From Alphaproteobacteria bacterium (GTDB lineage Bacteria; Pseudomonadota; Alphaproteobacteria; JBKEAR01): a stretch of DNA of 64,000 nt. A program made the translations under genes and the position numbers. This document shows positions 7,662 through 62,529 of this stretch, in pieces. Under the pieces are notes generated by a model that saw only the letters and a list, made by a program, of their open reading frames with translations, was not told the origin of the DNA and did not search any database. Each line of letters opens with the position of its first letter. Position 1 is the first letter of the stretch. The DNA lies in the NCBI GenBank assembly GCA_047973205.1, contig JBKEBO010000073.1, forward strand, positions 19,393 through 83,392, in the 5' to 3' direction.

Positions 7662-7937
7662 ATTTGTTAAATCCCTAGCTATATAATTTTTATCTTTTTA
7701 AGGTACGAAATTCTTATTAGAATGTCTAGTTGAAAATCATATATTCAGTAAAATTTAGATTCGCTTTACAGATAGTCTCATAAATTTGACTGTAAATATT
7801 TTGTGTTTTAGGTTTTATAGAAAAATAAATTATATTTTTATCTTATAACTTATTGAAATATAACCATATATTAATGATGTTTTTTAGATAAAAATCTAAA
7901 AAATTATGTTTTATTGCTTGTCAAGCACTCTTTAATG

Positions 7938-7966
7938 TTGATTAAATTTTTCTAAAAAGATACATT
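7938..7966 (+). promoter_or_regulatory. Candidate sigma70 promoter for nrdJ
   Basis: TTGATT-17bp-TACATT; the -10 overlaps an imperfect dyad aagatacatttatatgtctt (7957-7976). The region is AT-rich, so chance matches are possible. Confidence 0.35.
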
Positions 7967-8181
7967 TATATGTCTTGATTTGATATAGAGCGTTTTTTCC
8001 AAATCAGATAAAAATTTAAGAAAACAATGAATCTTGCAAGAAAGCGAGACTATTTACATGAGCCGCAAAAAACAGATTTGTCTTTTGTAGGATGGTGCAT
8101 CTTCTTGAATTATAATAAATTAAGCTTTTTAAGAGTTTAAAGAAGAGAGAAGAGTTATAACCCAATGCAAGGAGCCTAACG

Positions 8182-41194: not shown

Positions 41195-41230
41195 TTTACA
41201 TTTTATTCAAACTTTACATTTTATTCAAAC
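41195..41230. repeat. 18-bp exact tandem direct repeat in the NSS/protease intergenic region
   Basis: tttacattttattcaaac x2. Confidence 0.85.
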
Positions 41231-41326
41231 TTATATATTACTTTAAAAAAAGCATTATTTACTAAAATAGTGGAATTTTTATATAAAGACAAGGTGTAAT
41301 GTAAAAATGGAAGGTTTTGGCTTGGT

Positions 41327-51244: not shown

Positions 51245-52603
51245 ATGACAAAAATCACCCCAGAATTACTAGAAAAGTTTGAGTTTAAAGTTCCTCGATA
51301 TACGAGCTATCCAACCGCACCACATTTTTCTCCAGAAGTTGGGAGTGATACCTATGTGGATTGGCTTAAAAATCAAAACCCTAATGAGCCAATTTCTCTA
51401 TATATTCACGTACCTTACTGCGATACATTATGTTGGTTTTGTGCTTGTAATACTCAAATAACAAGTAACTATCGTCGTATTGAAAGCTATCTAAAATGGC
51501 TTACTGAAGAAGCCAAATTGCTTCATCAATATCTAGGCTTTAAGCCAAAAATAGCACGGCTTCATTGGGGCGGTGGCTCTCCCACTTTGCTCCAAGAAGA
51601 TGACTGGAAAATGATGGGAGATTTGGTTCATCAATATTTTGACTTTACCGATGATGCTGAGCTCTCTGTTGAGCTAGATCCTCGTGATATTCAAAGGAGT
51701 TACACCCAAACTTTGTTTGATGTTGGCATTAATCGGGCAAGTATTGGGGTGCAAGATTTTGAAGAAGATGTTCAAAAAGCAATTAACCGTCTGCAACCCT
51801 TTGAAGTTGTGGAAGAAGTTGTACTTGGCTTAAGAGATGTAGGCATTGAAGATATTAATCTTGATATCATGTATGGCCTCCCTTATCAAACAGAGGAACG
51901 AACTATTGCAATGAGCGAGAAGTGCTTGAAACTTAAGCCTAAAAGAGTTGCTCTCTTTGGTTATGCTCATGTTCCTTGGATGAAGCCTCATCAAAATAAA
52001 ATCCCTGAAGGGGAACTTCCTGGTAGTTGGGAGCGTTATCAACAATTTAAGCTTATTGAAGATATTCTTTCCAAAAATGGCTTAGATGCCATAGGTTTAG
52101 ACCATTTTGCAGTTAAAGAAGATAGTCTTCATATTGCTCAAAGAGAAGGGCGGATGCGGCGGAATTTTCAAGGCTATACAACCGATACGGCCACAACGCT
52201 TATCGGTTTAGGGCCAAGCTCTATTGGGAGTATGCATCAGGGTTATGTACAAAACCAAGCTTCGATTAGTATGTGGAAAAGTGAGTTAAAACAAGGGTTT
52301 TTACCTGTTCATAAAGGGCTTAAGCTTACGGATGATGATCGGATGCGGCGGGCTATTATTGAGGAACTTATGTGTAACTTTAGTGTGGATTTGGATAAGG
52401 TTCTGGCTGAATATGGTCATAAAGATTTTATTCTGGATAGTGAATTAGATGCCTTAAAACTCCTTGAAAATGAAGAACTTGTTCATGTTGATGGCCATAA
52501 GATTTCTGTAGAAGTGGAGCATCGTTTATTCTTACGAGCTGCGGCAGCTGTTTTTGATGTTTACCTCAATAAGGGTAAGGCCAAACATAGCCGAGCCATT
52601 TAG
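51245..52603 (+). CDS. hemN: Oxygen-independent coproporphyrinogen III oxidase
   Basis: PRYTSYPTA, YIHVPYCDTLCWFCAC radical-SAM motif, HWGGGSPT, YAHVPW, RNFQGY. Confidence 0.97.
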   Translation: MTKITPELLEKFEFKVPRYTSYPTAPHFSPEVGSDTYVDWLKNQNPNEPISLYIHVPYCDTLCWFCACNTQITSNYRRIESYLKWLTEEAKLLHQYLGFKPKIARLHWGGGSPTLLQEDDWKMMGDLVHQYFDFTDDAELSVELDPRDIQRSYTQTLFDVGINRASIGVQDFEEDVQKAINRLQPFEVVEEVVLGLRDVGIEDINLDIMYGLPYQTEERTIAMSEKCLKLKPKRVALFGYAHVPWMKPHQNKIPEGELPGSWERYQQFKLIEDILSKNGLDAIGLDHFAVKEDSLHIAQREGRMRRNFQGYTTDTATTLIGLGPSSIGSMHQGYVQNQASISMWKSELKQGFLPVHKGLKLTDDDRMRRAIIEELMCNFSVDLDKVLAEYGHKDFILDSELDALKLLENEELVHVDGHKISVEVEHRLFLRAAAAVFDVYLNKGKAKHSRAI

Positions 52604-52620
52604 GAGATATTATTGTTCAG

Positions 52621-52820
52621 TTTCTACCCATTTTTGCCCCTAATTGTCCATTTTTGTCCATTTTTGTCCAAAATTATCCCATTTAAACCTTAAATATCCA
52701 CAAGGCTCTCCCTATGAGTGTGTGATACTGATGGACAAATAGGGGATGTTTTTGTATTTTTTCTGTTCATTTAGGGATAAAAATGGATAAATTTGGACAA
52801 AAATGGACAATTTGAGGCAA
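52621..52820. repeat. Inverted pair of 10-bp-periodic repeat arrays (non-coding element of unknown function)
   Basis: Left units tttctaccca/tttttgcccc/taattgtcca/tttttgtcca/tttttgtcca/aaattatccc. Right arm 52774-52820 is the reverse complement of 52634-52680 at 39/47 positions. Confidence 0.9.
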
Positions 52821-52825
52821 CAAAT

Positions 52826-53968
52826 CTAATCATCAATCTTTAAATCACGTAAAGCGAAAAAGGCTTGCTTATATCCATTTTGAGCGGCTTTTTTTATCCA
52901 CTCAATACCATCCTTTTTATCTTGTTTAACACCTAAACCATAGTAAAGAGAATTGCCATAAAGATACTGTGCTTTGGGGTTATTTTGAGCTGCAGAAAGA
53001 CGATACCAGTTAGTGGCTTGCTCGCTATTCGGTGGAACATCCCTATGGCCTGTAAAATAGAGAGATGCAAGGTCAAGCATTGCTTTATCATCACCTAAAA
53101 GAGCTGCTTTTTTTAGCCATTTTTCAGCCTCAACACCATCGCGATCAACCCCTCGACCAGCCAAGTAAAGTGCTCCTAAAACCCGCATAGCCTCAGTATC
53201 ATCGGCCTTGGCCTTTTCCATCATCTGATTAAAGAGTATTTCTGAAGGGTCAAACTTTGTCGTCAAAGATGATATGTTGAAATCAGCTAGCCAAGCCTTA
53301 GCTCTTGGGTCGCCTTGCTCAGCCCCCGAACGATAAAGTCTTAAAGCTTCCGTATTGTTATATAATGCAGAGCTTTTATCAGAAAAAATAGTAGCTAAGT
53401 CATAGTAAGCCCTTGTTTCTCCTGTATTTGAAGCCCTTAAAAAATCTGTAATTGCGGCATCGATATTCTTATCTCGTCCTAAACCATCACGATAAGTAAT
53501 CCCTCTAAGCCAATAAGCGGTTGGACTATTGGCATTAATGGCTTCATTAAGGTAAGGGGTGATTATTTTAGGGTCAACTTCAATCTCAGGATTGAGAAGT
53601 AAAAGCTCAATAGTATCTGTAATTCCAAGCATATAGGGAGAATTTGCAGCATCTCCTATAGGAAAGTCTTTACTAAAAATATTTACAAGATCTTGGCTGC
53701 GAATATAGCCCATATCTCCTGTTTTAAGCTTTAACTTCCACCATGGTTTACCATTTTGAATAATAAGGTCTTGAACACTCACAAGTTCTTTAAATTCAAC
53801 ATCTTTTAATATCTGAGAAGAGGGGGACGGCTGACTATAAATCGAGGTTGGTCCGATACTCATCTGCTGCATAGGAATAGTCAGATGAAAGCTATTTTCA
53901 ACTGCAAAGGCTAAAAAGGAGCAGAAAATAAAAACAAAACCAATAGTAGAGCGTATCAGAAGAATCAT
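52826..53968 (-). CDS. Exported SH3-like plus Sel1-repeat protein
   Basis: Signal peptide; IYSQPS...WWKLKLKTGDMGYI (SH3b-like); multiple Sel1 repeats (LGALYLAGRGVDRD.EAEKWLKKAA, YGLGVKQDKKDGIEWIKKAA). Confidence 0.88.
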   Translation of the reverse strand: MILLIRSTIGFVFIFCSFLAFAVENSFHLTIPMQQMSIGPTSIYSQPSPSSQILKDVEFKELVSVQDLIIQNGKPWWKLKLKTGDMGYIRSQDLVNIFSKDFPIGDAANSPYMLGITDTIELLLLNPEIEVDPKIITPYLNEAINANSPTAYWLRGITYRDGLGRDKNIDAAITDFLRASNTGETRAYYDLATIFSDKSSALYNNTEALRLYRSGAEQGDPRAKAWLADFNISSLTTKFDPSEILFNQMMEKAKADDTEAMRVLGALYLAGRGVDRDGVEAEKWLKKAALLGDDKAMLDLASLYFTGHRDVPPNSEQATNWYRLSAAQNNPKAQYLYGNSLYYGLGVKQDKKDGIEWIKKAAQNGYKQAFFALRDLKIDD

Positions 53969-60909: not shown

Positions 60910-62529
60910 ATGGATATCAAAGAACTCAAAAACAAAGGTCTAAATCATGAATATGAAATCACTGTTCCTGCAAAAGATGTGGATAGTCGTGTTTCTAGCC
61001 GATTAAGCCAAATAGGTAAGCAAGTAAAAATAGCAGGTTTCCGCCCTGGCAAAGTTCCTCCTAGGGTTCTTGAGCAGCGTTATGGTCAAGCAGCGATGGG
61101 TGAAGTTCTTGAGCAATTGGTAAATGAGAGCGTGGGTTCTTTATTCGAAGAGAAAAAAATCCGCCCTGCATTACAACCTCAGATTGAGGTGAAATCATAT
61201 GATCGTAAAAAAGGGTTAGAGTTCATTCTTAAGGCAGAGATTCTTCCAGAAGTTTCTCATATGGATTATGCTAAACTTTCTTTAGTGAAAAAAGTTGCAA
61301 AAATTAATGATAGCGAAATTAAAGAATCTTTAGAAAATATTGCATCATCACATTCAGCTTCTGAACCCATAAAAACAAAACGTGCTGCAAAAGAAGGCGA
61401 TATCGCTGTTATTGACTTTGTTGGCCGTGTTGATGGAACAGAATTTGCTGGCGGTAAAGGTGAGGCTTATCCTTTAGAACTTGGTAGCCATATGTTTATT
61501 CCAGGCTTTGAAGAGCAAGTTGTTGGTCATAAACCAGACGAAACATTTGATGTTAACGTAACATTCCCCAAAGAATATGGTGCTAAAGAATTAGCAGGCA
61601 AGGATGCGGTTTTTGAAGTTTCTCTTAAAGAAATCCAAAAGAAAGTTCCTGCAAAGGTTGATGATGAACTTGCTAAAAAACTTGGCCTTGAAGATGCAAA
61701 AGCTCTTAAAGTAGCCGTTAAAGAACAACATGAAAAACAATATGATGGCCTATCACGCAACCATCTTAAACGTGAACTTTTAGATGCTTTAGATGAGGAA
61801 TATCGCTTTGATATCCCTCAAGGCCTTGTTGACCAAGAGCTCAATAATATTGTGCAACAATGGCAACATCAAAAAGATAATAATCCTGAGGCTCTTGGTG
61901 ATGAAGCCAATGCAACTGAAGAAGATATTAGAAGTGAGTACCAAAAAATTGCTGAACGCCGTGTTCGTTTAGGTTTAGTTTTAACTGACCTTGGCCGTCA
62001 AGAAAATATTAAAGTAACTGATGAAGATCGCCAACAAGTTTTAATGCGTGAAGTTCAGCGTTTCCCTGGTCAAGAGCAACAAATTTTTGATTACTTCCAA
62101 AAAAATCCTCAGGCTTTAGCTGCTTTAGAAGCTCCTGTTTTAGAAGAACGTGTGATTGATCTCATCATTAGCAAAGCAAAAGTTAAAGAAGAAACTGTTA
62201 GCGTAGAAGATTTAATGAAAGAGCTTGAGGAAGATGAAGCTCCAAAGAAGAAACCTGCTGCTAAAAAGGCTCCTGCTAAAAAGGCTGAACCTAAAAAAGC
62301 TACAGAAAAGAAACCTGCTGCAAAAAAAGCTCCTGCTAAAAAGGCCGAGCATAAAAAAGCTGCAGAAAAGAAACCTGCTGCTAAAAAAGCAACTACTAAA
62401 AAAACGACAGCGAAAAGCCTGCTGCTAAAAAGTAATTTGATAATTTTTATTAATCAGTTTAATATGTTCAGCCAGACCGTTATTTTAGATGGTCTGGCTA
62501 TATTTTACAAAAGGATAAAAGCTCTATGA
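60910..62529 (+). CDS. tig: Trigger factor with Lys/Ala-rich C-terminal repeats (true stop probably 62435; apparent 1-nt frameshift)
   Basis: GFRPGKVP ribosome-binding motif, FKBP domain ([18 protein letters not shown]), RRVRLGL; upstream of clpP. Confidence 0.97.
62248..62412 (+). repeat. 60-bp tandem repeat (~2.7 copies) encoding [20 protein letters not shown]
   Basis: Units start at 62248, 62308 and 62368. Confidence 0.9.
62470..62499 (+). terminator. Hairpin between tig and clpP (terminator or processing stem)
   Basis: agccagaccgt...atggtctggct stem followed by atatttt. Confidence 0.65.

Follow-up and report, generated by a model that had tools for sequence, protein, structure and literature searches.

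Opposed rows of a 10-bp motif between convergent genes of an alphaproteobacterium, a putative two-sided assembly site for an oligomeric DNA-binding protein

We analyzed a 64,000-nucleotide stretch of an Alphaproteobacteria bacterium (assembly GCA_047973205.1, contig JBKEBO010000073.1, positions 19,393 to 83,392 of the forward strand). This whole 64-kb stretch is referred to as the window, and all coordinates are counted within it. The window is a compact piece of chromosome with a G+C content of approximately 38%, in which hemN (plus strand) and a gene for a Sel1-repeat protein (minus strand) converge; the 222-bp gap between them is almost wholly occupied by an element built of two opposed arrays of a 10-bp unit, which we tentatively read as a site where a DNA-binding protein may assemble in rows. 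The features of the locus are the following:

51245 to 52603, plus strand: hemN, oxygen-independent coproporphyrinogen III oxidase, 452 amino acids (TIGR00538, 463.7 bits)
52621 to 52700, plus strand: left array of eight 10-bp units in exact register, WWWTTRYCCM on the plus strand and TGGRYAAWWW on the minus strand
52631 to 52680 and 52774 to 52823: arms of an inverted repeat, 50 nt each, 82% complementary and 93 nt apart, found by inverted-repeat search
52673 to 52700, minus strand: leftward promoter-like site (TGGATA, 16 nt, GATAAT with an upstream TG), a consensus match only
52701 to 52773, no strand: central part between the arrays, from sequence reading and repeat search
52732 to 52760, plus strand: promoter-like site pointing right (TGGACA, 17 nt, TATTTT), a consensus match only
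52774 to 52823, minus strand: right array of five opposite units, which read gggataaaaa, tggataaatt, tggacaaaaa, tggacaattt and gaggcaacaa on the plus strand
52826 to 53968, minus strand: gene for a Sel1-repeat protein, 380 amino acids (PF08238)

A first-pass annotation of this DNA had described 10-bp units at 52621-52680 that keep their phase to 52700, followed by core motifs and inverted units, and all of these were recovered in place. It had also placed the element between two stop codons, as is the case: hemN ends at 52603, and the Sel1-repeat open reading frame (ORF) ends on the minus strand at 52826, its stop codon lying 3 bp beyond the right arm. Of the arm pairing that it gave as 39/47 around a 93-bp spacer, the spacer stands, and the arms were found to extend over 50 nt. 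Period 10 was called in both arms by Tandem Repeats Finder. Within the left array the unit at 52681-52690 is weak, and the innermost unit is overlapped by ATATCCACA (52694-52702). In the central part are found TGTGATACT (52721-52729), then tggacaaata (52732-52741) as a sixth inverted unit, and finally a stretch rich in T (52749-52772); positions 52731-52745 form a third, partial inverted copy of the arm that is identical to 52637-52651 at 14 of 15 positions. Unit variants are mirrored between the arms, with TTGCCYC outermost and TTATCCC innermost in each, indicating that the arms are copies of one multi-unit sequence and not arrays that grew independently.

The opposed 10-bp arrays are real and lie far above chance. 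A two-unit 16-mer with up to three mismatches matches six times in the window, five of them in the element, against a mean of 1.13 in shuffled sequence (0 of 100 shuffles reach six), and TGGR-N6 repeated three times in phase is found twice in the window, both times in the element, with 0.07 matches expected. The hexamer TTRTCC occurs 10 times in the densest 250-bp segment, nine of these in the element, and at most three times per segment elsewhere. When all 60-bp segments of the 64 kb are ranked for 10-bp AA/TT/AT periodicity, the two arms come first and second, with a power of 17.0 and 15.2 (mean 3.8, standard deviation 2.0, 99.9th percentile 13.4).

No second copy or fragment of the element was found within the 64-kb window, and plasmid and phage searches with the element gave no match better than E = 0.2. 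No Rfam family scored at its gathering threshold; the sub-threshold matches were only to long-hairpin plant microRNA models, far below their cut-offs. The element lacks coding capacity, as stop-to-stop frames that overlap the hemN/Sel1 spacer are at most 43 amino acids long. A full-text literature search for its 16-mers returned no match, and a search of the literature on miniature inverted-repeat transposable elements (MITEs) of Bartonella and on 10-bp inverted intergenic repeats gave nothing relevant among the matches listed. An assembly artefact had been raised in the first-pass annotation; an assembly fold-back is unlikely, given nine differences between the arms over their 50 positions, and was rejected.

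The pattern of variation among the units was used to ask what has been kept. In the 14 units, the two bases of the CC pair are conserved in 14 and 13 units and the TT at unit positions 4-5 in 12 and 13, the variable positions being 1-3, 6 and 10; TGG stands in register at the start of nine of the 14. Heterogeneity between positions gives a chi-square P value of 0.045 for the 14 units and 0.033 for the 12 distinct ones. Arm-to-arm mismatches fall at 7 of 15 positions in the 3-bp A/T spacers and at 2 of 35 in the 7-bp cores (Fisher P = 0.0016, a value that overstates the difference because neighbouring spacer changes are not independent). Read as RNA, both strands are predicted to form long hairpins (-73.1 kcal/mol, z = -6.9, for one and -69.3 kcal/mol, z = -6.2, for the other), so that the hairpin-forming non-coding RNA suggested in the first-pass annotation is thermodynamically possible, but the placement of the mismatches argues against selected pairing. 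Since the variation is concentrated in the spacers, it weakly suggests that a recognised motif, rather than base pairing, was kept by selection.

The same variation bears on a neutral origin, in which an A/T-rich 10-bp microsatellite would have grown by slippage, been inverted by template switching (fold-back) and now be decaying. We hold this to be unlikely, and place it after the two-way terminator that is discussed below. The element does lie where selection is weakest, the evidence for constraint is only moderate, and palindromic arrays appear to arise repeatedly, given that inverted partners are present at eight of the pattern loci described below. However, the genome is compact, the CC pair survives across units whose spacers have turned over, and the mirrored order of unit variants has been retained in both arms.

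We tentatively propose, from the layout of the units, that the element is a putative DNA-level, two-sided assembly site for an oligomeric DNA-binding protein, with a grammar resembling that of MraZ and AbrB sites. This is the best explanation that we can offer, and we regard it as possible rather than probable. In each unit, an invariant GG/CC pair lies within a 7-bp core, TGGAYAA if read on one strand, after which come 3-5 A/T bases, and the units recur exactly once per helical turn; TGGACAAAAA, TGGATAAATT and GGGATAAAAA are examples of units that share this TGG-type grammar. Eight units are opposed to five (plus the one in the centre) around a 93-bp core. Of the three readings put forward in the first-pass annotation (a loading or wrapping site for a protein, a MITE and a hairpin RNA), the first is the best supported, as the CC pair is kept and the spacers vary.

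The centre of each core is 5 bp from the centre of its A-tract, which places the A-tracts in counter-phase. The core would then present its major groove, and the A-tract its minor groove half a turn on, to the same side, so that each arm would be pre-bent towards a protein bound on that face; the same groove-facing rule for the bending of DNA around a protein is described in a study of gyrase (PMC6379681). One subunit may read each core, contacts between neighbours would make binding cooperative, and the two arms would carry two rows of protein of opposite polarity. The likely outcome would be a stable nucleoprotein block between the converging transcription units, which could serve as a roadblock or insulator, or could act as a sink and so titrate the protein. 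The block might also gate two weak promoters that face outward and from which antisense RNA against hemN and the Sel1-repeat gene would arise. Both promoter-like sites have exactly five units in sense orientation downstream, as at mraZ promoters.

The comparison with MraZ and AbrB rests on the published grammar of their sites. MraZ boxes consist of GTG(G/T) and six spacer bases and are present in three copies in most bacteria and in four in M. genitalium; one subunit occupies each box's major groove and contacts TG(T/G), binding shows cooperativity, the ring, otherwise closed, opens in order to bind, fibres form on DNA of concatenated boxes, and mraZ transcription starts inside box 1 (PMC12957436). 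AbrB binds paired TGGNA motifs with A/T-rich spacers of 4-5 bp in direct or inverted order (PMC3738160). The mraZ promoter repeats of E. coli K-12, read from the sequence record (GTGGGAAATT, GTGGGGCAAA and GTGGGAATAA), likewise show a TGG-type core and an A-rich spacer at 10 bp. The element contains the three or more direct repeats of 10-bp period (a 4-nt box and a 6-nt spacer) by which MraZ sites are recognised. Thus, the TGG-type core, the A/T-rich spacer, the 10-bp period and the presence of at least three units in tandem make an MraZ/AbrB-type swapped-hairpin protein the leading candidate for the protein that would bind here.

Several observations weigh against this proposal. The pattern GTG(G/T)-N6 repeated three times, with up to one mismatch, has 0 matches in the window; GTGG occurs in only one of the 14 units, the leading G of GTG(G/T) being absent from the other 13, and the final A of the AbrB motif TGGNA is unmatched in the units. 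By our own estimate, an in-phase TGK is expected in about half of any 10-bp repeats, so that the match to the MraZ grammar is weak when taken alone. No MraZ was found among the 58 window ORFs that were scanned, and no gene for a DNA-binding protein adjoins the element; the organism's own mraZ would lie outside the window. Triple MraZ repeats are confined to the mraZ promoter in B. subtilis, according to bioRxiv 2022.02.09.479790, and likewise in M. genitalium, according to PMC8475190. The number of promoter-like sites is not above chance (5 versus 2.6 +/- 1.6 in shuffles), the 10-bp unit itself resembles a -35 hexamer, and we take these sites as no more than a lead. Finally, the units share ancestry, which weakens the statistics of constraint, and when the mismatches between the arms are counted as events only 4 of 6 fall in spacers (P = 0.07).

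In favour of the assembly site we also count the length of the spacer. In this window genes converge at nine junctions, whose gaps are 87, 18, 7, 11, 44, 11, 12, 222 and -24 bp, the hemN/Sel1 junction being the sole long spacer (222 bp versus -24 to 87 bp). A different explanation would act at the level of RNA. Here a two-way terminator or 3'-end element could be at work, in which a tract directly after each stop codon, rich in C and U, poor in G and with a CC every 10 nt, would load Rho and the complementary arm would close a long hairpin, causing polymerase to pause or protecting the 3' end. Rho-dependent terminators are characterised by approximately 78 nt of transcript with more C than G after the gene, and such a tract follows both the hemN and the Sel1-repeat stop codons. 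The left arm, as plus-strand RNA, has 21 C and 4 G in 78 nt (99.95th percentile of all segments of this length), and the right arm, as minus-strand RNA, 18 C and 5 G (99.35th percentile); for the C/G ratio just past the stop codon, hemN ranks third and the Sel1-repeat gene second of 57 genes. This is the only reading that accounts for where the arms lie as well as for their polarity, and it is in line with the stability of the predicted hairpins and with the lack, in the hemN/Sel1 spacer, of an intrinsic terminator (a G+C-rich stem with a T run). Nevertheless, Rho has no need of an exact 10-nt unit or of a conserved heptamer, the arm mismatches cluster in the spacers and are not spread as in a selected stem, and neither hairpin leads into a U-tract. 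Spacers of at most 87 bp suffice at the eight other convergent junctions, and the arms' polarity, taken alone, is a one-in-two coincidence. We therefore consider a terminator of this type unlikely.

Arrays comparable to that of the putative assembly site were sought in a genome collection with a degenerate three-unit pattern, which yielded at least 119 loci; none of the matches listed comes from the lineage of the window, and the likeness of these loci to the window is limited to the searched pattern itself. The central sequence of the element has no match in any of the retrieved loci. The array lies inside a long ORF in 37 cases and outside in 82. Among the 82 non-ORF matches listed, a Pfam scan of 145 flanking ORFs identified four, from four phyla (L009, L039, L059 and L078), in which the array stands on the sense strand between the promoter and the start of mraZ. 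The MraZ-like protein invoked in the first-pass annotation is thus not an empty idea, because the three-unit pattern is found directly upstream of mraZ at these loci, although the element lacks the GTG(G/T) box and lies away from any mraZ promoter.

At eight of the at least 119 loci the array has an inverted partner that agrees with it at no fewer than 19 of 26 positions, the remaining 111 scoring 12-18. Four of these eight (L014, L082, L083 and L101) belong to Parachlamydiaceae. In this family, six loci from three metagenome-assembled genomes (MAGs), four of them from a single one, carry palindromic rows of ATGGAC with 8-10 bp spacing (L014, L082, L083, L093, L101 and L113); the rows point inward at some of these loci and outward at others, and five of the six adjoin at least one gene start. 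One Dehalococcoidia genome carries two elements of approximately 110 bp with opposed TTGTCCC and GGACAA units (L065, 1935-2085, and L115, 235-340). Opposed rows of a motif placed once per turn thus recur in several phyla and in very different settings, such as upstream of mraZ, next to genes for tRNA or replication, or in the form of perfect tandem DnaA boxes. This architecture is therefore common, and yet it is not catalogued as a class.

We also note three sets of arrays of other kinds. In two Anaerolineae MAGs (L095 and L105, 300-330 in each), three TTGGGATAAC-like units directly precede an aconitase-family (leuC-like) gene that follows leuA, and by its position the array appears to be conserved at an orthologous site. 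Eight records of Lactiplantibacillus plasmids (L121, 2500-2550) have three or four TTCCA units with a 10-bp period upstream of an operon for a sugar isomerase and a phosphotransferase system. In Shewanella surugensis (L020, 2001-2080), eight exact TTATCCAAAA units are found approximately 70 bp away from where an ORF matching a YopE domain (E = 1.7e-9) begins.

A mobile origin is the alternative that we place closest to the assembly site, as a possibility that is still unlikely on balance. The element would be a relic or a non-autonomous mobile element, either a MITE with rows of transposase sites or the joined integrase-arm or iteron arms left after gene loss. Its form is that of a MITE (50-nt inverted arms, a total of approximately 200 bp, no coding capacity), and both the outlying convergent spacer in a compact genome and the third partial arm copy in the core fit a relic. 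Analogues are found among the matches listed: the array is within 100 bp of a tRNA 3' end at five of the at least 119 loci (L001, L047, L058, L077 and L103) and is adjoined by replication, integration or transfer genes at six (L001, L030, L036, L037, L041 and L061), which makes 10 distinct loci, as L001 belongs to both groups. At L058 (1891-2105), four GGGACAA units stand 35 bp beyond a tRNA-Ala gene, and after them come a hairpin and the tRNA 3' end in a second copy, in what looks like an integrative element reduced to approximately 115 bp. On the Caedibacter plasmid pKAP298 (L120, 2400-2540), the unit of the window is found within seven 21-bp iterons; these iterons lie inside a coding sequence annotated as helix-turn-helix (HTH_36), adjoining a gene of the HU family, and this coding call may be wrong. 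The L058 remnant, the pKAP298 iterons and the two Dehalococcoidia copies all fit a mobile relic.

At the element itself, the evidence is less favourable to mobility. Of the MITE suggested in the first-pass annotation, the inverted arms are there, but no target duplication was found (the best direct repeat is of 4 bp and out of register with the arms, and there are no flanking direct repeats), and the 64 kb hold no further copy or fragment. No tRNA, integrase, transposase or replication gene is near, the closest tRNA being 8 kb away, and the plasmid and phage searches reported above also speak against a relic. The arms differ at 18% of positions and yet their cores are kept. A Tn7-like end was also considered and dropped, as there is no 5-bp duplication and the units are spaced by 10 bp and not by approximately 20 bp.

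Readings based on DnaA or gyrase are possible but less likely. The first of these would make the element a weak cluster of DnaA boxes away from the origin, for titration or regulation, in which one near-consensus box nucleates cooperative filling. The first-pass annotation had pointed out a DnaA-like box, and ATATCCACA does match the DnaA-box consensus at 8 of 9 positions and keeps the phase of the left array, at whose inner end it lies; on the right, similarity to the box declines from the inner to the outer unit (7, 7, 7, 6, 4). Tandem DnaA boxes with a 10-bp period do exist: among the at least 119 loci, 16 have at least two boxes in phase that deviate from the consensus by no more than one base, and 11, from several phyla, have two to five perfect 9-mers at an exact 10-bp period (L012, L018, L025, L036, L050, L059, L071, L073, L080, L086 and L087). 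At L059 these boxes are directly upstream of mraZ, so that the DnaA box and the GTGG box of MraZ coincide there; no dnaA or dnaN was seen in the scanned flanks of these tandem-box loci. In the element, however, 13 of the 14 units match the box at no more than 7 of 9 positions (range 4-7) and lack the C of box position 8. One more near-consensus box is ordinary, since 31 sites in the window match the DnaA box with up to one mismatch. The GC-skew switch for which the first-pass annotation had proposed to look is not there, as the cumulative skew rises across the site with no turn, and no IHF consensus was found within the element. We consider a DnaA-box cluster improbable.

The second would make the element a preferred seat of gyrase, or of another DNA-wrapping enzyme, at a place where converging transcription piles up positive supercoils and the arms wrap the enzyme. 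According to the gyrase study (PMC6379681), the E. coli motif combines a central part with two arms that are periodic, and the enzyme accumulates downstream of transcribed units as well as in some BIME-2 repeats. The element is two-fold symmetric and strongly periodic and sits at a convergent junction. Still, the published gyrase motif spans 130 bp, of which 36 bp form the centre and 47 bp each of the two arms (PMC6379681), whereas the arms are 93 bp apart here, and a degenerate bendability signal needs no conserved heptamer. This is the least probable of the explanations considered, and we give it very little credence.

The assembly-site proposal can be taken further, in a form that we regard as doubtful and rank behind a neutral origin. 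The element may be an orphan two-sided super-operator for MraZ or for another swapped-hairpin oligomer, and the ATGGAC arrays of Parachlamydiaceae would then belong to the same unrecognised class. It would consist of two back-to-back modules, each with a promoter and five boxes in the layout of an mraZ promoter, facing out into the 3' ends of hemN and of the Sel1-repeat gene. A regulator of cell division might be titrated by the 14 boxes, or might gate antisense RNAs against both neighbours. Triple MraZ repeats have so far been reported only at the mraZ promoter. If the super-operator is real, its 14 units, arranged on two sides and remote from promoters, would offer a system in which to examine a second role of MraZ beyond the dcw cluster (titration, roadblock or antisense control); if the element is a relic or a product of slippage, it is ordinary.

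Elsewhere in the window, profile scans identified ybgF, tilS, ftsH, folP, glmM, a gene for a B12-dependent ribonucleotide reductase, lpxK, accBC, hom, recJ, hemN, hisI, znuCB, tig, clpP and clpX. Judged from what is known of these families, the content and order of the genes appear alphaproteobacterial. The Sel1-repeat protein is a singleton in its 90% cluster, its closest relatives are 46-55% identical, one of them from an Alphaproteobacteria MAG, and its matches in a protein atlas are generic Sel1/TPR clusters. The source lineage appears to be uncultured and, given such distant relatives of a singleton protein, poorly sampled. Other repeats and spacers were recorded in passing. The ybgF-like ORF at the start of the window has an internal 51-bp tandem repeat at 55-171 (2.3 copies, 92% matches). 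The longest spacer of the window (7662-8181, 520 bp) lies upstream of the ribonucleotide reductase gene and has no Rfam match at the gathering score. An exact 18-bp tandem repeat (41195-41232) is found just upstream of an adjacent pair of paralogous genes for clan AA aspartic proteases (TIGR02281; 41327-42677). In the trigger-factor ORF (60910-62529, 539 amino acids), the match to TIGR00115 is limited to residues 12-420, and tandem repeats of 60 bp and 15 bp at the C-terminal end (62237-62402) encode a tail rich in lysine, alanine and proline.

When set beside known systems, the element shares parts with several of them. Like MITEs and like repetitive extragenic palindromes and bacterial interspersed mosaic elements (REP/BIME), it has a suitable size, inverted arms, a predicted RNA hairpin and a setting between convergent genes; it differs from them in having no target duplication, a single copy in the window and arms made of phased 10-bp units. 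The iteron and arm-site arrays of mobile elements also have units of approximately 10 bp in direct and inverted sets around a spacer, but these stand beside an initiator or integrase gene or a tRNA and most of their units are GGGACAA, whereas the element has neither neighbour. In E. coli oriC, two opposed sets of closely spaced, low-affinity DnaA sites lie beside a stronger site, with an 11-bp period and in divergent orientation. The element likewise has two opposed sets of weak sites, closely spaced and next to a stronger one; unlike oriC, it is not at an origin, its period is 10 bp and not 11, the C of the box is missing, and its sets are convergent and not divergent. The parC centromere of plasmid R1 is composed of two sets of five repeats, one per turn, around a core, and is bound cooperatively by a small protein. 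The element resembles it in having two sets of short repeats, one per turn, that flank a core, but the parC repeats all point in one direction and are located in front of the par genes.

The closest likenesses are to AbrB sites and to MraZ operators, in keeping with the putative assembly site. AbrB sites share the TGG cores, the A/T-rich spacers of 4-5 bp and the direct as well as inverted order, and long sites with many motifs occur; they differ in that the fifth base is A where it is C or T here, in that their motifs come in pairs and not in rows of five to eight, and in that AbrB is known from Firmicutes. MraZ operators have in common with the element direct repeats placed once per turn, a TGG-type core and A-rich flanking bases, and the GGAYAA three-unit pattern precedes mraZ at four loci from four phyla among the matches listed. 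Known MraZ operators have three or four boxes in one orientation between a promoter and mraZ, whereas in the element 14 units form two opposed sets and lie between the stop codons of hemN and of the Sel1-repeat gene. By its sequence, then, the element resembles a row of MraZ-type boxes and yet would not be a member of the MraZ-operator family as this is defined.

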